Shown piece by piece: positions 4,535-39,204 of a stretch of DNA of 64,000 nucleotides (its first letter is position 1; each line of letters opens with the position of its first letter). The notes beneath the pieces were generated by a model. It saw nothing but the letters and a program-made list of their open reading frames with translations, had not been told where the DNA came from and ran no database searches. The stretch spans positions 10,790,001 through 10,854,000 of the forward strand of contig CM075995.1 of NCBI GenBank assembly GCA_038087875.1, given 5' to 3'. The position numbers and the translations under genes are program-made. The DNA comes from Malacoraja senta (lineage: Eukaryota).

Positions 4535-4825
4535 GGTGGCACATCTGGTAGAATTGAGGCCTCAGAGTACCAGGCACATGGGTTCCATCCTGACCGTGGG
4601 TGCTGTCTGTGCAGAGTTTGCACATTCTCCCTGTGATGTGGATTCCTACCACATCCCAAAGACGTGCGGGTTTGTAGGTTAATTGGTTTCTGTAAATTGT
4701 CCCTAGTGCCTAGGGAATGGATGCAAAACTGGGATAACATTGAACTTGTGTGAATGGGTGATCCATGGTCAGTGTGGACTTGGTGGGCCGAAGGCCCTGT
4801 TTCCATGTTGTATCTCTAAATTTAA
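4535..4825 (+). mobile_element. tRNA-derived V-SINE (HE1-like)
   Basis: tRNA-like head (GGTGGCACA..GGTAG; GGTTCCATCC), V-domain-like GTCTGTGCAGAGTTTGCACATTCTCCCTGTG, and CR1-type tail GGGCCGAAGGCCCTGTTTCC. Confidence 0.75.
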
Positions 4826-5301: not shown

Positions 5302-5501
5302 NNNNNNNNNNNNNNNNNNNNNNNNNNNNNNNNNNNNNNNNNNNNNNNNNNNNNNNNNNNNNNNNNNNNNNNNNNNNNNNNNNNNNNNNNNNNNNNNNNN
5401 NNNNNNNNNNNNNNNNNNNNNNNNNNNNNNNNNNNNNNNNNNNNNNNNNNNNNNNNNNNNNNNNNNNNNNNNNNNNNNNNNNNNNNNNNNNNNNNNNNNN
5501 N
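5302..5501. other. Assembly gap (200 N)
   Basis: Run of N. Confidence 1.
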
Positions 5502-5579
5502 CTTTCAGTAGGAGTTTCCATTGCTTTCTCAGCCTTAACTGGTGTTGTGTTCTTTGCTGCTGATGTTTCTCTTCCCCAG

Positions 5580-5716
5580 GGTCATCCATCTGATATCTAC
5601 AGTGGCAGCTGCCAGCTGCAAACCTTCAAGAAGGTTCTGTTCGAAATGGGTCCCAAGTGCTCGGGTGTGCTGGAGTTAGTGTCCTTTAACTCCGTGTCCA
5701 CGGGACACATTGGGGA
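5580..5716 (+). CDS. GPT2-like: Alanine aminotransferase-like gene, internal exon (137 bp) covering the PLP-lysine loop
   Basis: Polypyrimidine+cag acceptor ending at 5579 and GA|gtaagt donor. Translates GHPSDIYSGSCQLQTFKKVLFEMGPKCSGVLELVSFNSVSTGHIG(E), colinear with the ALT segment VYQDNVY..SFKKVL.EMGP....ELASFHSTSKGYMGE. Confidence 0.9.
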
Positions 5717-6094
5717 GTAAGTCACACTGTTCTCTTCCTCTGCTCAGTGACGTGAGAATGGCAGTGTTATTCTGGTGAACACAAGATGCATTCCCATCCC
5801 ATCGTGGTTCAGCCATAGCTCTGCACACGGCCACAATGGGAGAGACTTGTGGATGTTGTCCAGTCTACCACATAGGCCAACCACCCCACCTCCCCAATTG
5901 ACTCCATCTACACTTCACGCTGCCAAAATAATCAAGGACCACTCACACCCCAAGCATTCCCTCTTCTCTGCTCAGAAACGTGGAAATTCAGGAACAGCTA
6001 CTTCTCACTGTTATCAGACTGCAGAACTGTGCTGCCGTAAACTAGGATGTAGTTCCAAACTTCCAACCGACATCATTATGAAAATCTGCATTTT

Positions 6095-9000
6095 AGTTAT
6101 AGTGATACAGTGTGGAAACAGGCCCTTCATCCCAACTTGCTCACACCAGCCACGTCTCAGCTACACTAGTCCCACCTGCCTGGGTCTGGTCCATATCCCT
6201 CCAAACCTGGTCCTATCCATGTAACTGTCTGTTTCTTTAACCTTGGGATACTCCCAGCCTCAAGTACCTCCTCTGGCAGCTTGTTCCATACACCACCACC
6301 CTCAGTTACCCATTAAATCTTTTCCCCTTCACTTTAAACCTAAGTCCACTGGTCCTTGATTCACCAACTCTGGGCAAGAGACTCTGTGCATCTACCCGAT
6401 CTATTCCTCATGATTTTATACACTTTTATATGATCATCCTTCATTCTCCTGTGCTCCAAGGAATAGAGTACGAGCTTACCCAACCTCTTCCTATTGCTCA
6501 GACCCTCATGTCCAGGTAAATCTTCTCTATACCCTTTCCAGCTTGACATCATTTTTCCTACAACGTGGTGCCTGGAACTGAACACAGTAAACAATAGACA
6601 ACAATAAACAATAGGTGCAGGAGAAGGCCACTCGGCCCTTCGAGCCAGCACCGCCTTCTCTGTGATCATGCTGATCATCCATGATCAGTACCCCGTTCCT
6701 GCTTTCTCCCCATATCCCTTGACCCGTTATCAAACTCTCTCTTAAAAATCATCCAGAGAATGGCCTCCACTGCCTTCTATCAACATATGACAGTCCAGCC
6801 ATTTGCAGAAGGACCTCTTTGCTCCAATACTCAACTCTTTTTATGGAAGGCCAAAATGCCATTAGCTCTCTTCATCGCCTGCTGTACCTGCATGCTTACT
6901 TCAGTGACTGATGAACAAGAACCCCGAGATCTCGTTGTATTTCTCCTTTTCCTAACTTGACCACCATTCAGATAATAATCTGCCTTCCTGATCTTGCCAC
7001 CAAAGTGGATAACCTCACATTCATCCACATTAAACTACATCTGCCATGCATCTGCCCACACACCCAACCTGTCCAAGTCACCCTGCATTCTATTAGCATC
7101 CTCCTCACACTGCCACCCAGTTTTGTGTGCAAATTGCTAATGTTACCTTTAATCCCTTCATCTAAATCATTAATGTATATTGTAAATAGCTGCGGTACCA
7201 GCAACGAGCCTTGTGGTACTCCACTAGTCACTGCCTGCCATTCAGAAAGGGACCAACCAATTTTCTAATCATGTCAAATGCTTTCTGAAAGTCCAGGCAC
7301 ATTACGTGCACTGGCCACTCCTTGTCCATTTTCCAAGTTACATCCTTAAAAATTCCAGAAAGTTAGTCAAACATGATTTCCCCTTCATAAATCCTGTTAC
7401 TTCTATCCAAATGTGCTGCTATTTCATATTTTATAATTGACTCCAGCATCTTCCTCACCACCGATGTCAGGCTAACTGGTCTATAATTCTCTGCTTTCTC
7501 TCTCCCGCCTTTCTTAAAAAGTGGGATAATATTAGCTACCCCTCCAATCACAGGAACTGATCCTGATTCTATAGAACATTGGAAAATGATCACCAATGCA
7601 GCCACGATTTCTAGAGCCACTTCCTTAAAGTACCCTGGGATGCAGACCATCAGGCCCTGGGGATTTATCAGCCTTCAGTCCCATCAGTCTACCCAACACC
7701 ATTTCCTGCCTAATGTGAATTTCCTTCAGTTCCTCCATCACCCCAGATCCTCTGACCACTAGTACATCTGGGAGATTGTTTATGCCTTCCTTGGTGAAGA
7801 CAGATCCAACGTACCTGTTCAACTTGTTCCCCATAATAAATTCACCTGTTTCTGTCTTCAAGAGTCCAACTTTGGTCTTAACTCATTTTTTCCTCTTCAC
7901 ATACCTTATGAAGCTTTTACTATCCTCGTTTATATTCTTGGCTAGTTTACCTTAGTACCTCATCTTTTCTCCCCGTATTGCCTTCTTCTGTGCACTTTAA
8001 AATGTTCCCAATCCTCTGGGCTTCCCGCTCATCTTTGCTATGTTATACTTCTTCTCTTTTATTTTTATACTGTCGTTGACATCCCCTGTCAGCCACAGTT
8101 GCCTCTTACTCCCCTTAAAATCTTTCTTCTTCTTTGGCATGACCTGATCCTGCACCTTCTGTATTATTCCCACAAATACCTGCCATTGTTGTTCTACTGT
8201 ATTCCCTGCTAGGGTATCTTTCCAATCAACTTTGGCCAGCTTCTCCCTCAAGGCTCCATAGTCCCCTTTGCTCAACGTCCGATTTTCCCTCCTCCCTCTC
8301 AAATTGTCAATTAAAACTTATCATATTATGGTCACTACCTCCTAATGGCTCCTTTACCTCGAGTTCTCTTATCAAATCCGGTTCATTGCACAAGACCAAA
8401 TCCAGAATTGCCTTCTCCCTGGTAGGCTCCAATACAAGCTGCTCTAAGAATTCATCTCAGAGGCACTCCACAAACTCCCTTTCTTGGGTCCAGTACCAAC
8501 CCGATTTTCCCAGTCTACCTGCATGTTGAAATCTCCCATAACCACCGCAACATTATCTTTGCAAATGCCAATTTTAACTCTTGATTCAACTTGCACCCTA
8601 TATCCAGGCTACTGTTTGGGGGCCTGTAGATAACTCCTACTAGGGTCTTTTTACCAATACAATTCCTCAGTTCTGTCATACTGACTACATCTGATTCTAT
8701 GTCTAAAACACAATACTCTAAATATAGCCTCACCAACTTCTTATACAACTGCAACATGACCTCTCAAATTCTATACTCAATTCTTTTAACTCATGAAGGT
8801 CAATGTTCCAAAAGCCTTTTTGACCACCCTATCTACCTGCAACTCCACCTTCAAGGAACTATGCATCTGCACTCCTAGAACCCTCTGCTCTACAACATTC
8901 CCCAAACCCCGAACATTGAATGTTTCGGTCCTGCCCATGTTAGACTTTACAAAATGCAACACCTCACATTTCTTTGTATTAATTTTCATCAACCATTTCT

Positions 9001-10020
9001 CAGCCCACCTGGCCAATCGAGCAACATCCTGCTGCAATCTTTCACAGCCGTCTTCACTATCTGCAAATACTAATCTTGCCATGCATGTTCTCATCTAAAT
9101 CATTGATATAGATGACAGACAGTAATGTCCCCAGCAACGAACCCTGAGGCACACCACTATTCACGGTGCCCCAGTCTGAGAAGCAACCTCTCCCCATCAC
9201 CCTCTGCATCCTTCCACAAAGCTGATTTTCTATCCATTCAACTGTCACCCCTTGCATCCCATGCACCCTTGCATCCCACCTCTTTGACCATAACAGATTG
9301 CTCTCAAGACATTTCAATTGACTGCCCCTAGTTCCTCCATCCTCCTGTCTTTCTCCTCGGTAAATATAGAGGAGAAATCTCATTGAGGACCTTGTCCATC
9401 TCCTATGGCTCCAAACAGAGGTGTTTGATTCCTGAGGGGACCCACTCTCTCTCTAGCTACCTTTTCCCCTTATGTATTTATAAAATCTTTTGGGATTGTC
9501 CTTAATGCTATCTGTAAAAGCTACTGAATCTCCTGGCCCCTTATTGCCCTAATTTCATTTTTTAGTTTACTCCTTAGTTCCCAAAATTTCCTCCAGGGAT
9601 GCATTTGATCCCAGCTGCCTATACCTGTCCATGAATCCTTCTTAATCTTGATCAATGCCCCAATTTCCCTTGTCAGCCAAACTTCCTTATATTTGCCTGC
9701 CTTACCTTTCACTCTAAAAGGGATGTGCATATGCTGAGTTTTGTCAGCACACTTTTAAAAACATCCCACTTGCCTGATGTTCCTTTCCCCTCAAATAACC
9801 TGCTCCAATCAACCTGAGCGAGACCTTCTCTCATGTCCTCAAAGTTGGCCTTACCTCAATTGAGCATTTTAACATATGGGCATCCTCTGTCCTATTAATA
9901 ACTATCTTAAACCTAATCGAACAGTGGCCACTGGTGCTAAAGGGCCCCTCCCTGGAATACCTCATTTACTTGCCCTCCCCAATTTCCAAGTGTTGCCCTC
10001 TCACTTGTGGGGGCCTCTAC
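6095..10020 (-). mobile_element. Degenerate CR1 LINE, host of a nested CR1, intronic in the ALT-like gene
   Basis: RT motifs SGVPQGS..G.LL..IYINDLD at about 9060-9180. 3' end at about 6095. Confidence 0.75.
6590..8706 (-). mobile_element. Nested, internally deleted CR1 LINE
   Basis: Short-repeat tail at 6590-6615, fragments of APE (YRPPNS), KSPGPDG and RT (SGVPQGS), and imperfect TSD AACACAGTA/AACACAATA at 6581-6589 and 8707-8715. Confidence 0.75.
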
Positions 10021-11150
10021 ATATTGCATTTCACTTTAAATTGTAACACAGCAATGCTATAATCTTCACGCTGGTATTTTCTTCTTTGGAATACCTGTTG
10101 TACATGTGTGTGACTTGATTGTACTCGTGTTATAGTATGACTTGATAACACACAAAACCTTTCATTGCATCTTGGTACATGTGACAATAATAAAGTAAGA
10201 CCAGTACCTCGATCCCAATCCCACTGGCAATCTCACACCGACTCTCTTATTGCCCCATCACTGTGCCCCAGCTCATCTCCTCAGTCTCACCTCTATGGTC
10301 CCATCACTCTGTGCCCTCCGCTTCCCCCACATGTCCTCTACACTTCGATATTTCCATCCTGGGAAAAAGTTTCTGTCTACCCTACCTATACCTCTCATAA
10401 TTCTCCCTGCAACCTCTGCCGTTCCAGAGAAAAACAATCCCAGTGTGTCCAACCACTCTCTTTAGCTAATACCCTCTATTCTAGGCAACATCCTCGTAAA
10501 CTAGTGGGTAAGTCTTGGACCTAGAGGGCACAGCTTTGGAATAAAAGGACATACTTTTAGAAAGGAGATGAGGAGGAATTTCTTTAGTCAGGAGGTGGTG
10601 AATCTGTGGAATTCATTATCACAGACAGCAGTAGAGGCCAAGTCATTGGGTATTTTTAAATTGGAGATTGACAGATTCTTGATTAGTAAGGGTGTCAAAG
10701 GTTAAGGGGAGAAAGCAGAATGCTGTTAAGAGCCATGATTGAATGGCAAAGTAGACTAAATGGGCCAAATGGCCTAATTCTGCTCCCATGACTTATGAAC
10801 CTCTTCTGTACCCTCATCAAAACATCCACATATTTCCTGTAAGGAAGTTGATCAGAACTGCCGCATTACACCATGTGCAGCCGAACCATATGCAGTCAGT
10901 GGGTTATGGACTTGGACCTCTGTTCATCAATGCTATTAAGAATCATGCCTTAATTGTATATTTTCCCCTTACATTCAACCCCCTAATGTGCAACACATCA
11001 CACTGGCTCAGATTAAACTTCATCTGCCATTTCTGTAGCTGATCTACATCTCGCTGCATACCTTGACAGCCTTCTTCAGACTACACAAGCCCCACCAATC
11101 TTGGTGTGGTCTGGAACCAGACTGATGTATTTCTCTCCGGCCATTCATAG

Positions 11151-11325
11151 GTCCGGCGCACGGGGATGTTTCATGGAGGTGCTGAACATGAGTCCAGCGG
11201 TGCAGATGTACATCGGACTGATGCTCTCCGCCTTTCACTCCACCTCGGTGACAGCGCAGATCGCCATCGACGTCGCCACCCGGCCACCGCAACCTGGACA
11301 CCCGTCCTACCCTCTCTTCCAGGCT
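11151..11325 (+). CDS. GPT2-like: Alanine aminotransferase-like gene, internal exon (175 bp)
   Basis: tag| acceptor and |gtgagt donor, with phase 2 matching the previous exon. Translates (E)SGARGCFMEVLNMSPAVQMYIGLMLSAFHSTSVTAQIAIDVATRPPQPGHPSYPLFQA, vs ALT ECGxRGGYxEVxN...PPxPxDPSxxQF. Confidence 0.9.
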
Positions 11326-11789
11326 GTGAGTCCGAGGCGCAGAAGGGCAGAGAGTCACAGAGAGACAGCACAGAAACAGACCCTGTGGCACACCTGGTCT
11401 ATGTCGGCCAAGTTAGCACTTTGGGCTTGTCCCATGTCGACATTTGACATATCCTTTAAACCTTTTGTATCAATGTACCTGTCCGAATATCTTTTTAAAT
11501 GTTGTTAATGTACCTGCCTCAACTACTTCCTCTGGCAGATCCCTACATATACCACTAGCAACGGAGTGAAAAGGTTGCCACTCAGGTTTCTATTTAATTC
11601 TTTCTCCTCTCACAGTAAACCTATACTCTCTGGTTCTTGATTTCCCTACCCTGGGAAAAAGACATTCACCCTATCTACTCTCTTCGTGACTTTATATAGC
11701 TCTATAAGATTACTCCTCAGCCTCCTACGTTCCAAGGAATAAAATCCTAGCCTGCCCAACCTCTACCTATTCCTCAGGCCCTCGAGTTC

Positions 11790-14700
11790 TTTCAATGTGG
11801 AATGCTAATTATCAAATTCAAGTGGGGTTGTTGGAGGGATCTTAAGGAATTGGGAGGGGCAATTGGATCAAGTGTTCATGGATGAGCCTTTTGGGATGAC
11901 CGACCACTGCATTATTTGGTTTATGATAGTAATGGATCGCGACAGGGTGGGGCCCGCATATTAAAATTCAAAAATTGGAGCAAGTCCAACTTTGAAGGTA
12001 TTAGGAAACTAGCTCGTTGATTGGAGCCAGTTGTTTGGAGGAAGAGGAACATCTGGAAATTGTGATGTTTTAATAGTGTGCTGACAATAGTCTAGGGCAT
12101 GCATGTTCCTGTTAGAGTGCAGGACAAGGCAGGTGGGCAGAAGGAAGCTTGGATGACAAGATAAATTGAGGCTATGGTCAAGAATTAAAAAAATAAATGA
12201 GGCAGGTACATGCACCTGGGTTCAAGTGTATCCCTGGAGGAATTTTGGGAACTGTGGAGCATGCTAAGAAGGGAAATTAGGAGGGCAAAAAGGGGACAGG
12301 AGATGGCTCTGGCAGATAATCCCAAGAGATTCTATAAATACATAAAGGGGAAAAGGTACGATCAGCCATGATCACAATGAATGGCGGTGCTGGCTCGAAG
12401 GGCCGAATGGCCTCCTCCTGCACCTATTTTCTATGTTTTCTATGTAACCAGAGAGAGAGTGGGACCCCTCAGGAAACAAAGCTGTCAACTCGGTGTGGAG
12501 CCACGGGAGATGGGGCAAGATCCTCAATGAGTTTTTTCTCCTCTTTACCGTGGCGGAACACATGAGGACCGGGGAACTTTGTGGCAGTCAATGGAATTGT
12601 CGAGGCCAGTCAGTATTACTGTCGAGGAGATACTGAAGGTCCTACACATATGAAAGTAGACAAATCTCCCGGACCTGATCAGATCTATCTAAGGACACTG
12701 TGGGGAAGCTAAAGAGGAAATTGCAAGTGCATTGGCTAAGATATATGGGTCATTATTAAATACAGATGAGATGCCAGAAGACTGGAGGGCCTCTATTTAA
12801 GAAGGGATGCAAGGAAAAGCCAGAGAACTACAGGCCAATGAGTCTAACATCTGTGGTCACAAAGTTACTAGAGATCTGAGGGATAAGATGTACATGTTGT
12901 GACAGTGCCCCCTCCCTTCGAGGCCGCTCTAATCCCTATCACTAGCTGATTGATCAGAGAGTCCAATCCCCAGCGCTATTGGTAACACCTGGGTCTAATT
13001 AGCCACTTGAACGTCAGCCTACTTCCTATAAAACTCAGGCATTCTCACCGTAGAGAGAAGGATGAAGGAAGAAGGAAGAGAAAGAGAAAGTGTTGGGCCT
13101 CCATGTGCAGGTGTTCCCGTCGCAGCTTCGAGGAAGACTGAGTCACTGGGGGACAAACCAAGACCACCAGCACCACTATGTGGTCAAGACTGGACTGCCA
13201 GGAAGAAGCCCTAGCCCTGTACCTGAGGTGAAAGCTGAGTGGGCCGAGGCAAGCCTGAGACACAGAGTATCCTCCCTGCCCATGGACTAGGATGGACTGC
13301 GCCCACACACAGAGGCAAAGTCTGAGCTACCAGGATAATCCAGAGACCACCAGCAGTGCTTGTTCAAGTCCAAATCTGAGCTGCCTGGATAAACCTGATT
13401 GCCTGATGTACTGTAAGATCAACCTAACTAACTAACTGACAATTACTGCTGGAAATGTGAACATAAAATTGTGAGATACTAATAAAAACAGAACTTTGTA
13501 TGGAATTTTAAAAAATCTCTCTCCTTCACGAGAGAGAGAGGAAGGGAGAGAAAGTTGGGCACCTCCTTGCTACTAGCTGTGTGGTCGCAGGTTCAAGGAA
13601 GACTGAACCACTGGGACAATTCCAAGACCACCTGTGCCACTGTGTGGTCAAGACTGGACTGCCAGGGAGAATCCCCAGACAGCTAGCCCTCTACTTGAGG
13701 CGAAGGCTGAGGAAAGCCTGAGACGCCAGAGCCTCTTCCTGCCATGGGCAACACTAGACTGCGCCCACACACACAGGCAAAGACTGAGCTACCAGGATAA
13801 TCCAGAGACCGCCAGCACTGTCTGTTCAAGCCCAAAGTTGAGCCCCCAGGATAACCTGAGACTGCCAGCGCCTCCTCTCGAGGCAAGGGTGAACTGCAGG
13901 GAGAAGCCTGAGATCACTGTGTCTCCTCTTTTGAAGACCAGGGACTGAGCTGCCTGGACAAGCCCAAGATCGCCAGCGACATCGCACATGTGCCCAGATG
14001 GCGAGGGGCAGCACCCTTATGCCATCCTGGACTTTCTTAACACTGTAACATAGCGTTACTCTTTAAAACATAGAAACAGATATGGAAATAAAATATATCA
14101 CGCGAGTTCACCCTACCGTAAGTGTCGGTATGGTCACTGCTGAACCTGCCGCCACAGTGCATTTAATTAGACGGGCTGATTAGGGAGAGTCAGTTTTTTT
14201 GAAGATGTGACTAAAATGGTTGAGGGCAGACCCAGGTTGTAGACATTGTATATATAGATTTTATTAAGGCATTTGACAAGATTCCATGGTAGGCTGCTCT
14301 GGAAGGTTAGAACACATGGGATCCAAGGAGAGATAGCTGAATGGATAGCAAATTGGCTTCATAGAAGGAAGCAGATGGTGATGGTGGAAGGTTGCTGTTC
14401 GGACGGAAGGCCTGGGACTAGTGGTGTGCGTCAGGAGTTCAGTGCTGGGACCATTGCTGTTCGACATCTATATCAATGATTTAGATAGTAAGTTTGCAGA
14501 TGACACTAATGTAGGTAGTACTGTAGATAGTGAAGATGGTTGAAAAATTGCAGCAGGATTTTGAGAAGAATAGATTGGGTAAATGTATAAAAGTATTTTA
14601 CCCAGAGTAGGGGAATCAAGAACCAGAGGACATAGGTTTAAGGTGAGGAAAAGATACTTTGAGGCAATTTTTTTTAATACCACGGGGGGTAGGTGTATGG

Positions 14701-14900
14701 AATGAGCTGCAGAGGAGGGAGTTGAGGCAGGTGCTATCACATTATTTAAAAGATATATGGACATGTACATGGATAGGTATACATGTTTACAGGCATATGG
14801 CCAACACGGATGGTGAGACTAGTGTATCTGGAGCATGTTAGTCAGCATGGGCAAGTTGGCTCCAAGAGCCTGTGATATGCTGTATGACTCCATGGATTAA
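11790..14900 (+). mobile_element. Highly decayed CR1 LINE split by a solo LTR
   Basis: KSPGPD, ENYRP.SLTSV and HGRLLWKVRTHGIQG fragments. Sequence is continuous across 12898-14156. Confidence 0.65.
12898..14156 (+). mobile_element. Putative solo LTR (~1.26 kb)
   Basis: TGTGAC...GCCACA termini, TATAAAA near 13027, AATAAA near 14087, an internal ~300-bp duplication, and clean interruption of a CR1. The TSD is degenerate. Confidence 0.6.
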
Positions 14901-15695
14901 TAAAATAAGGCAGATTGTTAATTCAGGTTCACTGATGACATAATGAGAATTTATGGTGGATTGTGATGAAGAGGTCAAAGAGTTAATGTCTGGTTGTTAC
15001 TGCATTAAGGTTGAGTGCTGAGGTAAATCGTTCGTTTGCTGGTCAAAAGTCCACCCAAAGTAAATAGAATGGGAATGAACGCATAAAGTATGCTTGCCTT
15101 CACTAGTCGAGGCATTGAGTGTTATTAGCCAGGAAGTCATGATGCAACATTATAGGACTTTGGTTAGGTAAATAAGGAGTATTCTGTGCAGTTCTGCTCG
15201 TCCCATTGCAGGAAAGATGCATAAGGTTTGCATAAGGTTTGGAGAGAGTGCAATTTATCAGAATTATGCCTGGATTAGGGGGTGTTAGCTCCCTTAGTGG
15301 CTGGGAGAGTTTGTACAGGCTTGGATTGTTTTCTCTTGAACGTTAGAGGTTGAGGAAAAGCCTGATAGAAGTATATACAATTATGAGAGATATAGATAGG
15401 TTAGGGTTTTTCCCCATGGTAAAAATATCAGACTACCTTTAGCTTTAAAGACTAACCTCTCTCACCTTAAAGCTAGTTTTTGATATTTTTTTCCCAGGGT
15501 AGAAATATGAAAAGTAGCTTTGTGAGAGGGGCAAATTTTAAAGGGAATGCTCTTTTTTAGTGTGATGTGGGCCTGGAATGCTCTGCCAGGGCTGGTGGTG
15601 GAAGCAGATACGATAGTGGTGTTGGTAGCACATTGTGGGCCAAAGGGCCTGTTCCTGTGCTGTACTGTTCCTGTGTTCTGTGCTTTATTTGACAG

Positions 15696-15851
15696 GAAAA
15701 GCAGGAATCACTGAGGATGTTGGCTGAACAGGCACGTCTGACAGAGGAAATGCTGAATACCATTCCCGGCATTAGCTGTGCGGTTATCAACAGCGGGACG
15801 TTTGCCTTTCCCCGAATTGAACTTCCGGACGGAGCCATGGAGGCAGCTGAG
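15696..15851 (+). CDS. GPT2-like: Alanine aminotransferase-like gene, internal exon (156 bp)
   Basis: cag| and |gtaaac boundaries. Translates EKQESLRMLAEQARLTEEMLNTIPGISCAVINSGTFAFPRIELPDGAMEAAE, vs ALT [40 protein letters not shown]. Confidence 0.92.
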
Positions 15852-15994
15852 GTAAACCCAGTGTCCCAGGGGGAAGGCTGTGGTGTGAACACATGCCCTG
15901 ACCGGCCCTTCAACCATCCCCACTGTCATCTGACCACCTGCGTGATCTTAAGCCCACAATGAATCTGACCCTGCCTCTGATCCTGTGCCCACAG

Positions 15995-16107
15995 ACCATG
16001 AACCTGCGGCTGGATACTTTCTACAGCCACCGACTGCTGATGGATACAGGCTGCCTCCTGGCTCCCGGTGGGGACTTCGGTCTGCAGGACGGGCCCTGGC
16101 ACTTCAG
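15995..16107 (+). CDS. GPT2-like: Alanine aminotransferase-like gene, penultimate exon (113 bp)
   Basis: cag| and AG|gtaatg boundaries. Translates TMNLRLDTFYSHRLLMDTGCLLAPGGDFGLQDGPWHF(R), vs ALT ..[31 protein letters not shown]. Confidence 0.92.
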
Positions 16108-16715
16108 GTAATGTCAAGCAGATGTCCGCTTGGCCAGGAGAGGAGCCCTTATGCCCATCACACCCGCATTAGTCAGAGCAACTTCCACACTGACTCATTG
16201 ACCAGGCCGTGGTCTGCGGCCTTGGATATCCTAGAATTCCCTCCACATCCCCAAACACCCTCTTGGGCGGGAAGTTCTTGACTCCCACTACACCTGGGGA
16301 AACCATGCCCACCCCAGATCCCTTTGAAACATTCCACCTCTCTGTCTGCCCATGTCCTCTCTTGCCCCCTCGCGCACCTCCTCCACCACCACCATCCCCC
16401 TCCTGCAGTGCTCTCAGTACCGCATCCTCACCAGCACTCCCCCGGCACCCCTCCAGTTCTGCCCACACCACATGACGCTCAGTGCCACCCTCCCACAGTG
16501 CGCCCTCAAGGTGAGTTTCTCATGTGTCTGACCCCTGCTGCCCTTGTCCCGGGAGTGTGTGTAACAGGGCATCACACGTTGTTAGCTGCTAGGTACTATG
16601 GCTGGTGTGGTGTTGACCTGCCTTCAGGGTGTCAGTGTGTGCATTGTATGCAGAGTGAGGGCTGCAATGTGTGGAAGGGGCACTGGTGGGAGAGGTGTGT
16701 CCCGACATTGTCAGT

Positions 16716-17037
16716 TTCGTTTTGAGGTACAATGTGGAAACAGGCCCATCGACCCTTTGAGTCCACACCCTTCATCGATCATCCATTCGCAGTAGCTCTA
16801 TGTTATCCCACTTTCTCATCCACTCCCTACACACGATAAGTAATTTACAGAGGCCAATTAACCTACAAACCCGAACGTCTTTGTGATGTGGAAGGAAAGT
16901 AGAGCACCCAAAGGAAACCCAGGCGGTCACAGTGAGAATGTCCAAACTCGACAGAGACAGCACCGGAGGTCAGGATTGAACCTGGGTCTCTGGCGCAGTG
17001 AGTCAGCTGTTCTTTTAGCTGCGGCACTGTGCCACCC
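16716..17037 (-). mobile_element. tRNA-derived V-SINE (HE1-like) in the last ALT-like intron
   Basis: Minus strand GGTGGCACAGTG...GACCCAGGTTCAATCC head, V-domain and CR1-like tail. Homologous to 4535-4825. Confidence 0.8.
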
Positions 17038-17093
17038 TTCAACACTCTCGGTGTAAAAACGCTGGCCACTTATTTTCTTTCTCCTCCTCCTAG

Positions 17094-17184
17094 AATGAAC
17101 TTTCTCCTGCCCATCGACAAACTGAAGCTGACCCTGGAGAAGATCATGGAATTCCACAGGAAGTTCACGGCAGAGTTTTCCTGA
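17094..17184 (+). CDS. GPT2-like: Alanine aminotransferase-like gene, terminal coding exon
   Basis: Long pyrimidine tract + tag acceptor. Translates (R)MNFLLPIDKLKLTLEKIMEFHRKFTAEFS*, matching the ALT C-terminus RMTILPP.EKL..LLEK...FH.KF..EYS* including the stop position. Confidence 0.92.
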
Positions 17185-17329: not shown

Positions 17330-17905
17330 AGGGATTGTAAGATGATGGTGAGGCTACACTTGGAGTCCTGTGTTCAGATCTGATCACTCTGCTGTAGGGA
17401 GGATGTCATTAAGCTGGAAAGAGCACAGAGAAGATTTACAAGGATGTTGCCAGGACTCAAGGGCCCAAGTTATATGGAGAGGTTGAGCAGGCTATAGAGC
17501 ACAATATTCATGGAGTGCAGAAGGCTGGGGGGTGTTCTTATGGATATATACAAGAGCATAAAGAGAATGGATGGGGTAGATGCACAGTCTCTTACCTAGA
17601 TTGGGGGAATCAAGAACAAGAGTGCATAGGTTTAAGATGAAAGGGCAAATAAATGAAATTGGTACCTAAAGGGTAACTTTTCCACAGATATGGTGGTTGG
17701 TATATGGAATGAGCTGCCTTAGGAGGCAGTTGAGGCAAGTACTATAACAACATTTAAAAGATACTTGGACAAGTACTTGGATAGGAAAGGTTCAGACGGA
17801 AATGGATCAAACATGGGCAAATGGGACATGCTTCGAGGGGGAATTTTGGTCAGTGATTTTGGTCAGTTGGACCAAAGGGCCTGTTTCTGCACTGCGTAAC
17901 TGTGA
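17330..17905 (+). mobile_element. Degenerate CR1 3' fragment
   Basis: Decayed VRLHLE.CVQ.W and RRFTRMLPGL-type coding remnants plus 3' UTR. Confidence 0.7.
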
Positions 17906-24968: not shown

Positions 24969-27900
24969 GCATACCATTGCCGGGCAATGCATGTGCCATC
25001 CCCCTTTTCCATGTGAGTCTGTCCATGAGCTAGGCGGGACAGGGGCAAAATAGGCACCTGGGGCAAACTACCCGACCATCAGGGTGGACCCAGACAATGG
25101 GGTCTTGATAACACCCTGCTTTGCTCCAGGAATTGTTTTCCTGAAGTGATGCAAGGCTCTGGGCATCATGTAATTGGGCTTCATCAATGCTACTCGGGAG
25201 CTTTCTTTGTGCTGCAGACTTAATCTTAACTGCTTGTAATTGCAGGGTTTGCCTCAGGGCAATCTGTTTGGCTACATAATCAGCTGATCTGTTTCCCCTT
25301 GATACATCATCATCCGATTATGTATGAGCTTCACATTTGATAACTGCAATTTGCCGTGGCAATTGAATAGTATCCAATAAATTTAAGACCAGTTGATCAT
25401 GCTAATTAGTCTTTCCTGTTGATGTGATGAATCCTCAATTTTTCCAAAACTGCCCAAAGTCATGTACAACCCCAAACGCATAGCGAGAATCGGTGTAGAT
25501 ATTAGCACTTTTATCTTTTGCCAATATACAGGCATGAGTCAGGCTGTGCAGCTCAGCTGCCTCCGCGGATGCTCCAGATGGTAAAGCGTACGCGTCCAGC
25601 ACTTGGTGTGGTGTGACCACCGCATATCCTGTTAATAATCTGTCATCGCTAGGTCGGTGTGAAGAGCCAGCAGTAAATAGGACCAGATTAGGATCATCAA
25701 TCGGATGACTGTAAATCCAGCCAGGGAGTAACAACGGCTTCTACAATCAATAGACAATCATGGTCACAATCTTCTTCTGGCAGTGTTACAAAGATAGCTG
25801 GGTTTATAGCAGGTGATCGCTGATATGTATAGTTCGGATGTGATAAAAGGATCTTTAGATTTCTAAACACCTGTTCTCTTTCTGCAGTCCATACTACTCT
25901 GGAGCGCTCAGTCTGCAAGGTGGCTGAACGCAATGCTGCATGTAGTTCCCTGCAGTCATGGATCCACTGTCTGCAGTAACCCACCATGCCTAAGAAGGAG
26001 AGAATGTCCTTCTTTGTCTTCGGGACCAGGATGTTCTCTATTGCTTTTATTCTGTCTCTTTCCAAATCTCCTTCTGTCTTCCTGCATCTGGAATCCCAGA
26101 TACTGTACACTAGGCTGGCAGAATTGTCATTTTCCCAGGGATACTTTATGCCCTCTTCCTGCCAAATGTTGCAGCAGTTTAATTGAGTACAATCAGGACC
26201 TGTCACAGAGGCTACTAAAAGGTCATCGATCAAAGTAGACCTCCCTGATAATTGACATTCTTCTAGATTATTTTCCACTGCTGCTGCATATATGGCTGGG
26301 CTTTCAGTATACCCTGGGGTAGCCTGGTCGAGATGTTTGTTGATCTTTGTAGGTAAATGCAAACAGGAACTGGCTGTCTTTATGCAGGGGTAAGGAGAAA
26401 AAGGCTAAACATAGGTCAATTACTGTAAAGGTAACGGCTTCTGCCGGTATAGATGACAGAATAATATTAGTGTCAAGTATTAAAGGAGCAATAGGGATCA
26501 CTATTTATTTTTATTTTAATTTTTTTAAAAGCTCTCAGGTCTTAGACGAAATGCCATTCATTACGTCTTCCCACTTTTGGGATTGGCAGAATAGAAGTAT
26601 TACATGGGCTTTGCATTTTCACTAATACTCCTTTTTGTAATAAAGATACTATGACCATAGCTATCCCTTCTTCAGCCTCCGGGGCCAGTCAATATTGTTT
26701 TAAACATGGCAAGGCTGCACCTTTTTTAAAGTCACTTTATGTTCAGGGGCTGAATGCACTCGTCCTTCATGATTCTTATGCTTTGCCCATGGTTCAGAGG
26801 GTACGTGGACCAGAGCCATTGGTAACCTTGGCGGATCCTCAGTAGGCGGCTGTTGCCTATCAAAAATAGTGTCCCATTTCTCTCTGACCAATGTGATCTT
26901 TCCTTCTGTATCATTGACAACTTTAAATCATGAATTGACTGTTTGTCCTTCATCCTTTTTATCATCTCTCCTATTGCCATTGCCATTGCTGGAGGTCTAG
27001 TAGCTACAGTCAAGTGTGACAGAGGTGTCTCCCATTTAAAATCGATCCCTTTGGTTTTGTGAGAGGTGGACCATCATTCCCAATCCCGGGACCCCAAAAA
27101 ACAAATAAGGGGTCACTGTTAATTGTTTGAGTTTATTCAACCAGGGGAAGACTCTACCCTGGTATCCGGGATTAGGGAGGCACGTATATAATTCAGTGCA
27201 ATGCGTTCGCTTATCTTCTTGGCTGGTTTCAACAAGATACTGTAAATACTGGCCTTTTGGATCCTGCACTCTTTACAGAGCACAATGGATTTGATTAACC
27301 AACTGACTGTACGGATTGCTACTTAATTACCAACAATATAAAATGGGCATCTTTTGCCCTTGTTCTTCCTCCTTAGTTACATTTAACAATTGATGTGTCT
27401 GCATTTTAGGGAGTTCCATAAACATACCGTCTGCAGTACAGTATAAGACTGGTCCCAGTTTGCACGGAGCCTGTCTTCCCAGTAACGGGAGTGGGGTTGT
27501 TCTAGTGATTATAAAAGTGCAGCAAGGGACTAGACACCCTCCCTATAACCATATAACCATATAACAATTACAGCACGGAAACAGGCCATCTCGACCCTTC
27601 TAGCCCGTGCCGAACACGTATTCTCCCCTAGTCCCATATACCTGCGCTCAGACCATAACCCTCCATTCCTTTCCCGTCCATATAACTATCCAATTTATTT
27701 TTAAATGATAAAAACGAACCTGCCTCCACCACCTTCACTGGAAGCTCATTCCACACAGCCACCACTCTCTGAGTAAAGAAGTTCCCCCTCATGTTATCCC
27801 TAAACTTCTGTCCCTTCATTCTCAAGTCATGTCCCCTTGTTTGAATCTTCCCTACTCTCAGTGGGAAAAGCTTATCCACGTCAACTCTGTCTATCCCTCT

Positions 27901-28740
27901 CATCATTTTAAAGACCTCTATCAAGTCCCCCCTTAACCTTCTGCGCTCCAAAGAATAAAGCCCTAACTTGTTCAACCTTTCTCTGTTGGGCGTTCCCTTA
28001 TTGTAACTGTGGGGAACATCTGCAATCTCGAGCCCAATGCTCTTTCTTACCACATCTCCAGCATGTACCTTGTGTTGTATCTTTTAATTGCCATTGTCCC
28101 CTTTCACTGTCATGTTCACAAGCACTGTGATCACATTCTCCCCACGGCTAATTTTGCCAATTTAGGTTTACCAATTTAAAGGCTTCAGCCTGTCGGGGCA
28201 GCAAACAATTTAGTAGTGTGAACAGCTAGAGGCCCATTTTGAGCTAGGGCTCTGACATGTTCCTCCCACTTAAATAGGGCTATAAAATCTGGGATCGTCT
28301 CATCTTTGTGTTGCAAGCATTGCACCACCTCTCCTATATCACTATGTTTTCTCGCTCCCCCCATTATAGCCTCCCCTCCTCTGTGGGCCAACCAGTGAGT
28401 GAGGGACTAATTTCCCTGAGCCTGCTGATCATCATCTTGCTGCCACTTGCTTTGGTATAATAGGCACAGGTCCCTCATTTCCCTCTTTCTGCTTAACACC
28501 TTCCTCCTCCTCTAGGGGCTGGTATTTTTTCTGCAACCCAATCCATCTCCTTATTATATCCATCAATTTTAAAGTTACACTTACCACTCCAACTATCACG
28601 AATAACACTTCCATGGCAAATATTAATTGTGCTCCCATCTTGCCAACCCATTTCTTTTTTTTTTAGAGATAAGTAGGACAGAGATAGCTTAAAAAATTCC
28701 CTTATCTTGCCAATTTCCATTTAATTGATCAGCTACATTA
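24969..28740 (-). mobile_element. Endogenous retrovirus remnant (gag-pro-pol, class I/epsilon-like), degenerate, no LTRs seen
   Basis: RT FTVIDLCLAFFSLPL..SQFLFAFTY, GYTESP, DDLLV, FLGMVGYCRQW. RNase H SAEAAEL..LT.AC..A....ANIYTDSRYAFGVVHDFG. Integrase start AHGQTHMEKG. Confidence 0.75.
27544..27985 (-). mobile_element. CR1 3' fragment inserted in the ERV
   Basis: Near-identical to about 24130-24565, with the same GGTTATAT tail. Confidence 0.9.
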
Positions 28741-30959
28741 CCATGAAGATTTACTGGACATTGGTCATCTGTACTTTTTTATTACCGCATTTGCTGGCGA
28801 TCCCAGTGGTGACAGGCAAGATTAGAGGAATGGAGTACTTCAGAGTGAGCGGAGTCCAGGACAAATTATTTATTGTGGGTCCAGAACCAGAATCGGGGTG
28901 TTGATGCTGGGCATTGCGGACTGTGGTCTCGATCTCCCAGGTGATGTAGCCCACCAGGCAGGTGGGAGGCAGAGTTGGTTTGTGGGAATGGTTGTCCTGG
29001 TCGGAATTGAACTGGTAGAAGAGGGAGTCGGGCTTGACATTCTTGGACCCAGGGCGGTAACACAAGGTGAAGTTAAACCGGGTGAAAAACAGGGCCCACC
29101 AGGCTTGACGGGGGTGAAGTCGCGTCGCCGAACGCAGGTACTCCAGGTTCTTGTGGTCCATCCAGACTTGGAATTGTTCCTCAGTGCCCTCCAACCAATG
29201 CCTTCACTCCTCCAGCACCAGCTTCACTGCCAGCAGCTCCCTGTTGCCGATGTCATCATTCCTCTCAGCCTGGAGGCGGCGGGAGAAGGAGGCACAGGGG
29301 AGCATCTTCTGGTCCTTGGAGGAGCGTTGGGAAAGCACCATCCCAACTCCAACATCAGAGGCATCAACCTCCTCCAAAAACTGACGGGCCGGGTCAGGAT
29401 GCTCCAGGATGGGGGCGGTAGTGAAGTGTTGCTCAAAGTCCAGGAATCCCCTCAGCAGCAGGGGACCAGGCAAACGTGATGGAGGTAGACGTGAAAGAAG
29501 TGGGAGGAGCAGCCAGGATGCTGTAGTTGTGGATAAAGTGGCGGTAAAAAATGGTGAACTCCTTCCTACTGGTAGGCTCAGGCCAATCTACCACCACTCT
29601 CACCTTTCCTGGATCCATCTTGACATGGCCAACAGAGAGGATGTATCTCAGGAAGGACACCATGGGCTGGTGGAACTCACACTTCTCTGTCTTGACGAAC
29701 AGCTGCTTCTCCCATAGCCGCTGCAGGACGAGATGGACATGGCGGGTATGTTCTAATGCAGAGCCAGAGTACACGAGGATGTCATCCAGATAAACGAAGA
29801 CAAACTGGTTCAGCATGTCACGGAGCACATCATTGACCAGAGCCTGGAAGACAGCAGTAAGGCATTACGAGGTACTCGTCATGCCCGCTGGGTGTGTTGT
29901 AGGTCGTCTTCCACTCATCTCCTTCCTTGATGCGAACCAAATTGTACGCATTGCGTAGATCCAGTTTGGTAAACATGGTGGCATGCTGCAGGCAGTTGAA
30001 GACAGAGGAGATGAGTGGCGAGGGGTAACAGTTTTTGACAGTGTCCTTCAGGCCTCGATAGTCAATGCAAGGGCAAAGGTCGCTGTTTTGATATCTGTCT
30101 GCTTATAAAATAAGTAAACTAGTACATAATGTACAGAGAAAGATGACTACACACACACACTCATGTTGGGGTCTAAACAGGAATGATTTATTTCCAAGTC
30201 AAAAGTCACTGACTGATTTACTGAGCATGTGCAAGAATGAGCACAGCTCATATGAATAAATTACAGGGATATCGTCACATCCTTTCCGTTTTGACATTTT
30301 GGGATTACATTTCCGACGATCCCAAAACAAAGTAAACTTAAACACTTTTCATAATATTACACCGTAGTAATATGGTTTAACTTAACAGAGTAAAACAACT
30401 GTTCTGTCTTATTTCACAATTTCAATCATAGTCACACTTGTGACATTTCAATAACATAAACTATTGTTCACATGCTTTCTTCTCATAAGCAGGTAGGTTC
30501 ATCACAGCAAAACACATTACTCCGTGACATACTCGCCGTACCCTACCAGCGGTCTGACAGCTCTACCTGCCCTAGTCTTTGGATGGTGTTTCTTTCAGAA
30601 ATGTCTTTCTTTTCAGTAGGTATATTCTGTGCATCACCTAGTTTCTTCTCTTGTGTTTTTACTTTGATTTCTCTGTGTTAAGAGTTTCACGAGTTGCATC
30701 TTTTTCCGGTGATGCATGTTGTGTTGGTCTTTTCAATGTCAGCTGAGGTTGCAAAGGTGTCCCAGTCTTCTCCACGTCTGGTGGTTTCTCTGGAATTATG
30801 TGTGGAGGTATTTCTCCGGTCTTCTTCAGATCCACTCGGTTACGTCGGATTAGAAGTCCTGACTCTGTCTCGACTTCATATGATCTCTCATCCAGTCATT
30901 TATGAACTGTTGCTCTCTGCCTTCTGGTATCTCCTAGTTTATAGGGTTTGGGTCTTACG

Positions 30960-30995
<36 letters not shown>

Positions 30996-31796
30996 GTTTT
31001 ATTCATCACATACACAATAAAGTGAGGCGAAATAAATTTGCCAGCAGCGGTACAATAAAAAAGAACACACAATACACAATAAAATTGAACACAAACATCC
31101 ACCACAGCATTCTTTACTGTGGTGGAAGGCACAAAGTACAGTCAGCCCTCCTCCATTATTCTCCCGTGGTCGGGGCCATGAACCTCTGCAGTCGCCACTG
31201 CGGGCGGTCAGATGACAGGCACTCTCTTCTTAAAGGTAAGTCCCGAATCGGTGCTTCCCTACCGGAGACCGCGGCTTCAAGATGATGTAGGCCGCAGGCC
31301 GGCGGTCGGAGCTCTTCTCCAGGGATCCCCTGTGAGAGATCCCGCTGGTAGGTCCACACCGCGCCCACAGCTAAAAGCTCCGCAGACCGCGGCTTGAAGA
31401 TGTTGTAAGCTGCGGGCCGACGGTCAGAGCTCTTCTTCTCCGGGGGTCCCCAACAAGGGATCCCAGGCTCTGGACGCTGCGCCCGCGGCGAGAAGCTCCG
31501 AAGACCGCGGCTTCAGACTGAACAGCCAGCGATTGGAAAAAGTTCCCGTTGCTGAAGCTCCGGGCCCGACTCCGGGAAAGGCCGCACCAATTCTTGGTGT
31601 TAGGCCGCGAGGGAGGCGACATGGAAAAAGTCGCGACCGAAAGCGGTTTCCCCCTTACCCCCCCCACACCATCCCCCACACCGAGAGACACTAAAACAAA
31701 CATTTGGATATACTAAAAAATACAAAAAAATGCAAAAAAAGTAGAAATGACTCACACGCTGCTGGCAGGGCAGACGCCTCGCAATGCCCCCACCGG
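30960..31796 (-). mobile_element. Non-autonomous retroposon with (TTGA)n tail
   Basis: AATAAA followed by a (TGAT)n tail on minus, GC-rich internally repetitive body, no ORF. Related to 39205-39930. Confidence 0.6.
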
Positions 31797-32058
31797 AGAT
31801 CACCTTCTTTCAGGATTGGCAGATCCTTGGCATGTCGGTTGTAGATTTTTTACTGTTTTCCTTGCAAATCCTTCACCTTTACCGCTCTTCTGTGAGTATC
31901 TCAGCACCACGTGGTTTGAGGAAGTTAGATGTCGTTGGAAGTGTTGTACTTGTTCACCTTCCATGTGGTCTTTGTGCAGGTACACAAAAAAGCTGGAGAA
32001 ACTCAGCGGGTGCAGCAGCATCTATGGAGCGAAGGAAATAGACAACGTTTCGGGCCGA

Positions 32059-33953
32059 CATAGCACAACAGGAGGAAACAAAATGGGCAATCCGGGCTGA
32101 AAAGATGAAGTATGAAGGGAAGCTGGCCAGGAATATAGAGAAGGATAGTACAAGCTTCTTTAGATATGTTAAGGGAAAAAGAGTAGCAAAGTCAAATGTG
32201 GGTCCCTTGAAGGCAGACACGGGTGAAATTATTATGGGCAACAAGGAAATGGCAGAAGAGTTGAATAGGTACTTCGGATCAGTCATCACTAAGGAAGAGA
32301 CAAACAATCTCCCAGATGTACTGGAGGACAGAGGATCCAAGGGGGTAGAGGAACTGAAAGAAATTTTCATTAGGCGAGAAATAGTATTGGGTAGGCTAAT
32401 GGGACTGAAGGATGATAAATCCCCTGGGCCTGATGGTCTGCATCCCAGGGTCCTCAGGGAGGTGGCTTTAGAAATAGTGGACGCATTGGTGATAATTTTC
32501 CAATGTTCAATAGATTCAGGATCAGTTCCTGTGGATTGGAGGATAGCTAATGTTATCCCACTTTTCAAGAAAGGAGCGAGAGAGAAAATGGGGAATTACA
32601 GACCAGTTAGCCTGACTTCGGTGGTGGGAAAGATGCTGGAGTCAATTATTAAAGAGGTAATAATGGGGCATTTGGATAGCAGTAAAAGGATTAGTCCAAG
32701 TCAACATGGATTTATGAAAGGGAAATCATGCTTGAGACAAGTAAAATGGATGAAGGGGTGCCAGTGGATGTAGTGTATCTAGACTTTCAGAAAGCATGTG
32801 ATAAGGTCCCGCACGGGAGACTGGTGACTAAAATTAGAGCACATGGTATTGGGGGTAGGGTGTTGACATGGATAGAAAATTGGTTGGCATACCGGAAGCA
32901 AAGAGTAGGAGTGAACGGGTCCTTTTCAGAATGGCAGGCAGTGGCGAGTGGAGTGCCGCAAGGCTCGGTGTTGGGGCCGCAACAGTTTACCATATATATT
33001 AATGATTTGGAAGAGGGAATTAGGAGCAACACTAGCAAGTTTGCGGATGACACAAAGCTGGGTGGCAGTGTGAACTGTGAAGAGGATGTTAGGAGGTTGC
33101 AGGGTGACCTGGACAGCTTGAGTGAGTGGGCAGATGCGTGGCAGATGCAGTATAATATAGATAAATGTGAGGTTATCCACTTTGGCGGCAAAAACAAGGG
33201 GGCAGATTATTATCTCAATGGGGTTAGGTTAGGTAAGGGTGCGGTACAGCGAGACCTGGGTGTCCTTGTACACCGGTCACTGAAAGTTGGCGTGCAGGTA
33301 CAGCAGGCAGTGAAGAAAGCTAATGGAATGTTGGCTTTCATAACAAGAGGATTTCAGTATAGGAGTAAAGCGGTTCTTCTGCAGTTGTATAGGGCTCTGG
33401 TGAGACCACATCTGGAGTATTGTGTACAGTTTTGGTCTCCCAATTTGAGGAAGGACATCCTTCTGATTGAGGCAGTGCAGCGTAGGTTCACGAGATTGAT
33501 CCCCGGGATGGTGGGACTGTATTATAAGGAAAGATTGAAAAGACTAGGCTTGTATTCACTGGAGTTTAGAAGGATGAGGGGGATCTTATAGAAACATATA
33601 AAATTATAAAAGGACTGGACAAGCTAGATGCAGGAAAAATGTTCCCAATGTTGGGCGAGTCCAGAACCAGCTTAGGGGAGGTCATTTAAGACTGAGGTGA
33701 GAAAAAAAAATGTCACCCAGAGAGTTGTGAATTTATTGAAATTTCCTGCCACAGAGGGCAGTGGAGGCCAAATCACTGGAAGGATTTAAGAGAGAGTTAG
33801 ATAGAGCTCTGAGGGCTAGTGGAGTCAAGGGATATGGGGAGAAGGCAGGCACGGGTTATTGATAGAGGACGATCAGCCATGATCACAATGAATGGCGGTG
33901 CTGGCTCGAAGGGCTGAATGGCCTCCTATTTTCTATGTTTCTATGTTTCTATG
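32059..33953 (+). mobile_element. 5'-truncated CR1 inserted in a hammerhead-like pLTR unit
   Basis: ORFs 32105-32773 and 32728-33591 (KSPGPDG, SGVPQGS, SKFADD) and (TTCTATGT)n tail. Confidence 0.92.
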
Positions 33954-36853: not shown

Positions 36854-37267
36854 GGATCGTTGGAACATGGTCTCACTTTATTGATTATTTAAAGGGTCAG
36901 AATGGTTCAGCACAAGAACCTGACTAACACTCGGGCTAAAGAATGGATGAAATGATATACTCTGATAATTACGAATATATCTCGAACGAAGTTTTTTATC
37001 TTAATACATTTTTCCATTCTTCCCTAACTATCTTTTTTTTTTCTTCTTTTTTTTCTTTCTCTCTCTTTTCTTCTCTCTCTTTTCTTTCTTTACTTCATCT
37101 ATCTTTTTAGTTCTATCTAGTTTAAAAAAAACAAAAAAAGGCAAAAGGTATTGGAGACAATGTAATAATAATTGACAATATTATCAATTTAAAAATGCAA
37201 GACTGGTAATGATGTTAATATGTTATGTACTTATCTCCAATAAAAAATATTTTCAAAAAAAAAAAAA
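36854..37267 (+). mobile_element. L1 3' fragment with poly(A) and 15-bp TSD
   Basis: ACTTTCCCATGATTT at 36839-36853 and 37268-37282, AATAAA + A-tail, and a W..FIDYLK ORF2 end. Confidence 0.8.
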
Positions 37268-38347
37268 ACTTTCCCATGATTTCTCGTCTTTTTATTGAAA
37301 ACGAATCTTTCATATGTTTCATTCGTCTCTCCTATGATGATGGTAGACATCTTGTCGATGATGACTTTCACATCCATCTCATCTGCTCCCGTCTCGAACG
37401 TCAGGGTATTGAAGACTCGCACGCCCTCCGGTCCAACAGTGTGCAGAAATACTACTTTTTGATACTGTTTCCCCTTCTTATCCAGTTCTGTTATCGCTGT
37501 TTAATTTTCATACATTTGTTTAAACATTTTCCACTCTTCCACCCTGTTCTCGTTGAGCTTTAGATTGGGAGGTGGAGCCACGTGGAAACATGGACTGGTC
37601 TGCGCCATTTTGAAATATCAGCGTATTCCCTCGCTCTTACTAGCTTATTTTATCGTTAAGCAGACTTTCACAGCACGTCATTTTAAACTTCGACTCCCAC
37701 AGCACTGATTTACACGCAGCGTCTTATCTTTGTGTGCTCACTGACTTGCATTCACTCGTGCATGCAGCTAGTCCGGTCACTGAGTGTTGAAACAATGATT
37801 TCTGAAAGCTTTTCAAAGCAATTTTTCTAATCATCATAGTGTCCATTTGATTCACAAATGTTCACTTTCACCGCTGCGACCATGTTTTGATATCTGTCTG
37901 TTTATAAAATAAGTAAACTAGTACGTAATGTACAGAGAAAGATGGCTTCACACACACTCATGTTGGAGTCAAAAACAGCAATGATTTATTTCCAAGTCAA
38001 TGGTCACTGACTGATTTACTGAGCATGTGCGAGAATGAGTACAGCTCATATGCATAAACTACAGGGATATTGTCACAGATGCCATCCTTCTTCCTCACAA
38101 AGGAAAATCCTGCCCCGGCGGGAGAGGAGGATGGACGAATTAAATCAGCTGCCAGAGACCCTGAAATGTATCTCTCCATGGAGTAGAGAGTGAGCACAGA
38201 TGACTGCTGGGTGGAGAAGTACCAGATAATAGGCCAATGGCACAATGATAAGGGCGGTGAGGAGGTAAAGAGGTGGCTCAGGACTTGCAAAAAACTCCTT
38301 TCAGGTCATGATACTCGAATGGCATCAGAAGCAACAGACACAGAGGT

Positions 38348-39035: not shown

Positions 39036-39204
39036 AAGCGGAGGGAAGATAATTACCGTGATAATGTTGCCCCCAAGTGGAGATCTTGCCAATGGACCAG
39101 TTAACAGTGGGGTTGTGAGTTGTTAGCCAAGGCCGACCCAGAACGACTGGAACATGAGGTAAGAGCAACTGAATGCTCTCCCGGTGGTTACCTTTAACAC
39201 AAAG

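Follow-up and report, generated by a model that had tools for sequence, protein, structure and literature searches.

The DNA analyzed here is a 64,000-nucleotide stretch of the skate Malacoraja senta (assembly GCA_038087875.1, contig CM075995.1, positions 10,790,001 to 10,854,000, read on the forward strand; hereafter the window, with position 1 at its first letter), and it carries the 3' half of a gene related to those encoding alanine aminotransferase (ALT), namely GPT (ALT1, here GPT1) and GPT2 (ALT2). Five exons on the forward strand, i.e., exon 7 (5580-5716, 137 bp), exon 8 (11151-11325, 175 bp), exon 9 (15696-15851, 156 bp), exon 10 (15995-16107, 113 bp) and the coding part of exon 11 (17094-17184, 91 bp including a TGA stop codon at the normal ALT position), have AG acceptors throughout and GT donors at the four internal borders, and join into an open frame of 223 amino acids with zero stops. 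Their sizes match those of exons 7-11 in this genome's canonical GPT1-type gene, which lies on the same scaffold and keeps the catalytic lysine. With residues numbered on the 523-amino-acid GPT2, the GPT1-like exon 7 has His in place of Tyr302 (the Tyr binding O3' of the cofactor), keeps Ser338 and Ser340, and has a Thr codon, ACG (5700-5702), at the position of Lys341, the lysine that forms the Schiff base with pyridoxal 5'-phosphate (PLP). Exon 8 keeps Arg350 of the phosphate site and has a degenerate LSVRLC segment, exon 9 contains AVINSGTF and a clade-specific Gly at position 438, and the 3' end of exon 10 is the HFR motif, with the carboxylate-binding Arg494 split by the intron. The translated exons read SFNSVSTGHIGE/SGARG, GHPSD, AVINSGTF and HFR. 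A preliminary description of this stretch had proposed the five exons with their splice sites, open frame and normal stop, the Thr codon, the GHPSD and AVINSGTF replacements, and the retention of S-x-S, G-x-R and the Arg of HFR; all of these are borne out by the sequence (Ser338, Ser340, Arg350 and Arg494 for the retained residues). Its claim that the gene is intact stands for exons 7-11, the only half which it had shown. The exons are thereby confirmed as GPT-type, and on sequence we read them as exons 7-11 of a fast-evolving third ALT gene adjoining GPT1.

The Thr codon was compared with contigs of four public sequencing runs covering this position, and only ACG was found, without any other letter in 4/4 runs. 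Run X1 differs from window 5502-5860 solely by a 1-bp intron deletion and is possibly the source sample, hence not independent; runs X2, X3 and X5 represent three other organisms, approximately 3-6% apart, and span 5700-5702 without difference. Moreover, the loss is not a read error because the orthologue in Leucoraja erinacea has Ser at the same place. Sequencing error was thus ruled out. Since Thr replaces the PLP lysine, which passages of PMC9309667 describe as a prerequisite for catalysis, the skate copy is predicted to be unable to transaminate.

The closest named protein is a full-length sequence of 522 amino acids from L. erinacea (P0001), identical at 209 of 223 positions in the 3' half. 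Relatives were sought with this protein and a profile of the clade, and the best 150 representatives of 8000 candidates were retained. The divergent relatives listed come from rays, sharks, lungfish, reedfish, bowfin, sturgeon, many teleosts, frogs, salamanders, turtles and birds, under database names such as 'alanine aminotransferase 1-like/2-like' or 'alanine transaminase', and no mammalian member is present among the named members of these 150 representatives. For the active-site comparison, 29 paralogue proteins were counted, leaving out a fused model from Phyllobates (P0006) and 11 fragmentary or mis-modelled sequences (P0138, P0143, P0160, P0168, P0170, P0173, P0183, P0190, P0216, P0227 and P0231), and set against 66 canonical rows (full-length picks from 120 listed); three further rows of the dropped set were added for a 31-row tree. 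The trees are quick runs, with the Shimodaira-Hasegawa-like approximate likelihood ratio test (SH-aLRT) as the only branch support. In the mixture-model tree, a single branch (SH-aLRT 99) sets the 31 divergent rows apart from all others, the clade falls inside the GPT1 group (SH-aLRT 91), and its inner branching largely matches the species tree. Six alignment columns have a derived residue that is common to cartilaginous, ray-finned and lobe-finned lineages and nearly absent from the 66 canonical ALTs. The genomic position of the paralogue is also close to GPT1: both genes are on the same scaffold in this skate, their RefSeq accessions are consecutive in Scyliorhinus torazame, the Phyllobates model joins a 5' half resembling the paralogue (75% to that of Hyla) to a 3' half of GPT1 (92%), and in Spea and Catharus the records of both genes give the same size for the longest contig. 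From these sequence comparisons, the paralogue likely derives from GPT1 and arose once, early in jawed vertebrates. The preliminary description had called such a protein notable in a probably ureotelic elasmobranch; a clade spanning sharks to birds is not specific to elasmobranchs, and the link to ureotely has no basis here, the lysine being lost also in teleosts, salamanders and a thrush. Two ALT-like proteins without the lysine, one from Coccinella septempunctata (P0149, S-D-G) and one unnamed (P0204, S-Q-G), apparently lie outside the vertebrate clade and are possible independent cases.

Eleven key residues were scored across the clade, with roles taken from E. coli AlaA and human ALT2 as given in passages of PMC4094517. 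In the canonical ALTs, Lys341 is kept in 66/66 and all eleven residues in 64/66. Among the paralogues, Lys341 is kept in 15/29, the other 14 having N, S, R, C or H, to which the window gene adds T. On the 31-row tree (lysine kept in 15, absent in 15, gap in one), at least five changes between K and not-K are needed, and all three sharks as well as Mobula keep the lysine. The 15 keepers in 31 rows, including these sharks and Mobula, therefore rule out that the loss characterizes the clade or the elasmobranchs as a whole, a point which the preliminary description had left to be checked. Residues lost nearly clade-wide are the plug residues Tyr62 and Arg65 (the Arg is kept in one of the 22 members with a residue at that column), Asn94 and the segment 369-376; likewise, the YAVRG plug and the NIGD motif are absent from skate exons 1-2 and from nearly all clade members. 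Ser188, Tyr216, Asn271 and Tyr302 are lost patchily. By contrast with these losses, the residues of the phosphate site, Tyr150 (from the partner subunit), Ser338, Ser340 and Arg350, are kept in 28-29 of 29 members, Arg494 in 25 and Asp299 in 24. Among the cofactor-ring residues, Asn271 binds O3' together with Tyr302, Tyr216 is the stacking residue and Asp299 the partner of the pyridine N. In batoids, the position of Asp299 is K, E, F or D, and Tyr216, Asn271 and Tyr302 are replaced; the Leucoraja protein has Ile at 271, Gly at 216 and Lys at 299, the window gene has His at 302, and Mobula has Gln for Arg350. A compensating lysine, for which a search had been suggested, was rejected at the sequence level: no new lysine common to the four lysine-less batoids is present in the aligned sequences.

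The 5' exons of the skate paralogue were found at the far end of the same scaffold, on the same strand. Exons 1-4 (G000:C19:11328572-11340847, about 530 kb from the window exons) are bounded by GT-AG splice sites and join into 186 open codons, identical to L. erinacea at 165 of 186 positions, so that the nine assembled exons of the scaffold copy (1-4 and 7-11) have no stop or frameshift. Upstream of the window exons, a gap of 200 N (5302-5501) ends 78 bp 5' of exon 7, and no ALT-like exons were found in the 100 kb before it; an 80-bp exon candidate at 4536-4615 was discarded, since it looks like a repeat and yields no ALT-like translation. Downstream, a possible polyadenylation signal (AATAAA, 17648-17653, forward strand) would lie about 460 bp 3' of the stop codon. 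Because the scaffold carries four gaps in the region read and GPT2 is reduced in the assembly to exon 1 beside a gap (G000:C2:193829911-193830156, reverse strand, L110), we infer that the separation of exons 1-4 from 7-11 reflects misordered contigs in an incomplete assembly. Several features were also observed around the 5' exons and the skate GPT1. A tandem copy of the paralogue exon 1 region (G000:C19:11310765-11314512, L053) is 97.6% identical, with an in-frame 21-bp deletion, and 2.5 kb upstream of each exon 1 the first 28 codons occur once more in a shorter duplicate. Exon 1 itself (L055, G000:C19:11328572-11328796) encodes an Arg-rich N-terminal extension of about 50 residues. The extension has an open frame in both skates, shows little folding in the model and is missing from most other clade members; it appears to resemble a mitochondrial targeting peptide. 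The skate GPT1 (L013, G000:C19:11191241-11191377) has S-K-C where most ALTs have S-K-G, and S-K-C is also found in GPT1 of several ray-finned fish.

Other elements near the gene include broken pieces of long-terminal-repeat retroelements at window 26500-41300 (reverse strand), with reverse transcriptase, RNase H, gag and zinc-knuckle frames, and a short open stretch at window 43352-43450 (forward strand; GRYVNI...LCEVEIFG), for which no Pfam match and, by motif search, no partner exon was found. By its motif, this stretch presumably resembles the last exon of an F-type lectin. In addition, NACHT and leucine-rich-repeat exons of an NLR-type gene (G000:C19:10884627-10907977, reverse strand, L085-L087) lie approximately 75 kb downstream of the paralogue.

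We also considered the predicted structure. The Leucoraja orthologue matches Pfam PF00155 (Aminotran_1_2), and its AlphaFold2 model (mean predicted local distance difference test, pLDDT, 87.7) has human ALT2 (3IHJ) as the best match (E 1.6e-47, root-mean-square deviation 2.1 A, template modelling score 0.90 of the target), in agreement with the earlier reading of an ALT-like protein as far as a model can tell. Compared with GPT and GPT2, the skate protein thus has the same predicted fold, exon sizes and phases, Aminotran_1_2 domain, phosphate-site residues and Arg494, but lacks the Schiff-base lysine, the O3' Tyr and the plug Tyr and Arg, and has a degenerate LSVRLC segment; it is identical to the skate's own GPT1 at only 92 of 222 positions. 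Within the clade, hardly any variation is seen in the central helix or at Gly148 and Tyr150. When the catshark paralogue and catshark GPT1 were modelled as a heterodimer, the score was 0.93, with 0.00 for the best control, above a mark reached by 51/78 solved and 2/108 mismatched pairs (71/105 and 2/126 in eukaryotes); at least 96% of contacts agree between runs, and the partner pLDDT is at least 91. The passing score likely reflects likeness to solved ALT homodimers. In the model, the dimer surface is still compatible with GPT1 pairing, which gives no proof of a pair; the earlier idea of a heterodimeric regulator of ALT is compatible with this model.

Open reading frames have persisted over large distances in this clade. 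Skates, electric ray, stingrays, elopomorphs, milkfish, barb, percomorphs and salamanders all have lysine-less copies with an open frame of full or nearly full length, and these sequences from many distant lineages are a stronger argument for constraint than the ratio of non-synonymous to synonymous rates (dN/dS) in skates. Among three related species, the only exonic indel listed is in frame, and no frameshifting indel is listed. Fixed lesions and neutral evolution, which would mark a pseudogene, were not found in the nine assembled exons, and dN/dS is below 1. Four to five RefSeq isoforms in each of three elasmobranchs give an indirect hint of transcripts. No RNA data set is among the 24 sequencing runs listed, which has no bearing on whether the gene is expressed.

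Judging from the sequences and models together, it is rather probable that the skate protein is a folded, dimer-forming pseudoenzyme descended from GPT1 and perhaps a partner of GPT1. Its being a pseudoenzyme is by itself quite probable; the heterodimer role within that reading is a leading guess only, and overall less likely than not. The paralogue would have lost its substrate-selecting residues (plug Tyr and Arg, Asn94, the LSVRLC segment), and the cofactor chemistry (Lys341, Tyr216, Asn271, Tyr302) would then have been lost independently in several lineages; meanwhile, the fold, the dimer helix and Tyr150, which would be donated to the partner subunit, would have been kept. Such a dead subunit could give its GPT1 partner one working site with an altered pocket wall, as LCB1 does in serine palmitoyltransferase. 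A much wider proposal, which we regard as doubtful, is that a tandem GPT1 duplicate more than 400 million years old, lost in mammals, became a pseudoenzyme at least four times independently and serves as a dead ALT1-pairing subunit tuning alanine-pyruvate flux in fish, amphibians, turtles and birds.

A number of observations weigh against the pseudoenzyme reading or its parts. The trees contain long branches, which can attract each other, and carry no bootstrap; the approximately unbiased test does not reject a separate duplication in cartilaginous fish (p 0.074). Exons 5-6 were not found by a genome-wide search of the assembly, which returned matches only to GPT1's own exons, the donor of exon 4 (AGT/GTACAT) is weak, and the haplotig C3383 has a stop at a Tyr codon in exon 3. 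The preliminary description had raised disabling lesions in the 5' exons: exons 1-4 are open on the scaffold, and this haplotig stop is the one on the other side. Over 2.2 kb, 23 gaps and 5 mismatches separate the haplotig from the scaffold, most of them affecting single bases, a pattern that suggests long-read error; the contigs of run X1 do not reach the exon 3 stop. As for the models, 41 of the 61 rows in the AlphaFold alignment are canonical ALTs, which favours an ALT fold, and the modelled catshark paralogue keeps the lysine. Interface columns are not specially conserved (0.66 vs 0.65 in other invariant columns, p 0.68), and two of the retained residues, Tyr150 and Arg350, belong to the interface, so that their retention singles out neither a heterodimer role nor phosphate binding. 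The lysine is retained in half of the clade, and frogs with 10 of the 11 key residues, as well as pike and salmon with nine, look much like working enzymes, so that the evidence does not extend a loss of activity to the entire family. The paralogue evolves approximately twice as fast as GPT1 (skate-catshark identity 229/458, or 50%, vs 333/443, or 75%). In exons 2, 3 and 7 of skates, 10 distinct changes among the differences listed are non-synonymous (248 sites) and 10 are synonymous (85 sites), i.e., a rough pooled dN/dS of about 0.34 (p 0.016-0.048 vs neutrality) among differences that include a second read table given as 40 of its 98 rows. Exon 7 alone, the sole complete table, gives 0.47 (p 0.20), and exon changes hardly differ from intron changes (10/137 vs 14/142, p 0.52). 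The earlier statement that the protein is still under constraint is accordingly supported by the pooled ratio, to a modest degree, and not significantly by exon 7.

The main rival, which we consider rather unlikely, is that the protein acts as a homodimer without GPT1, binding or buffering vitamin B6 forms (PLP or pyridoxamine 5'-phosphate, PMP) or another phosphorylated metabolite non-covalently. The near-invariance of Ser338, Ser340, Arg350 and Tyr150 across the 29 members is what such a binder would show, together with the frequent retention of Arg494 and Asp299; 19 of the 64 polar invariant columns are kept as well as these, and all four being so kept has a chance probability of about 0.006, for a set chosen after the fact. 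However, the ring-binding residues at 299, 216, 271 and 302 are gone in batoids, Mobula has lost even Arg350, and for Tyr150 and Arg350, which lie in the dimer interface, retention may be structural. It is less likely still, for the skate copy, that the family comprises enzymes of changed specificity wherever the lysine is kept, with the skate gene a relic that decays as selection is relaxed and is turning into a pseudogene. The frog, pike, salmon and reedfish proteins, with 9-10 key residues and only the substrate pocket changed, may indeed be enzymes of other specificity, and the long branches, the haplotig stop and the weak exon-intron contrast would suit a relic; yet lysine-less frames are open and full length in many lineages, far longer than a dead frame should last, dN/dS is below 1, the haplotig differences resemble long-read error, and GPT2 is also mostly missing from this assembly. 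It is very improbable that the lysine-less protein still catalyzes another reaction, with non-covalent PLP or PMP or a relocated lysine. The fold and the phosphate- and carboxylate-binding residues are kept, and Leucoraja has Lys for Asp299, but that Lys is not shared (E, F or D in other batoids), the lysine-less batoids have no new lysine in common, and the six different residues replacing Lys341 suggest no common chemistry.

Catalytically dead paralogues of PLP enzymes are a known kind, and antizyme inhibitor and plant PDX1.2 are kept as regulators, with different folds and partners. No regulatory dead subunit of ALT was found in the literature searched, and no paper on the present paralogue was found in the open literature, subscription papers being outside the scope of the search. 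The gene ch211-217a12.1 is a candidate for the zebrafish orthologue. In passages of PMC10606920, this gene is named only in a pathway list, and the GPT passages of a preprint (bioRxiv 10.64898/2026.09.05.749567) do not mention the paralogue. According to passages of PMC5960717, Alt2 of S. cerevisiae is a retained ALT paralogue with no alanine transaminase activity and no known role; it is inactive yet keeps the lysine, whereas in the skate protein the lysine itself is gone. LCB1/SPTLC1, as described in passages of PMC3794620, is a PLP-enzyme paralogue without the PLP lysine that pairs with its active paralogue to form one active site. It belongs to another family and is obligate and universal, whereas mammalian GPT1 functions with no such paralogue, the lysine is lost only patchily in the present clade, and the pairing is only modelled. 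The clade, its place beside GPT1 and the repeated loss of the lysine were absent from the literature searched, although RefSeq already lists the proteins as enzymes.

Few enzymes of vertebrate physiology are measured as often as ALT, which is regarded as the product of two genes. A further gene, retained from sharks to birds, that has a broken active site but an enzyme name in databases would lead metabolic reconstructions and studies of expression astray in fish and other non-mammals. With the lysine retained in some lineages and independently lost in others, the clade would also provide a replicated natural experiment on the transition from enzyme to pseudoenzyme.

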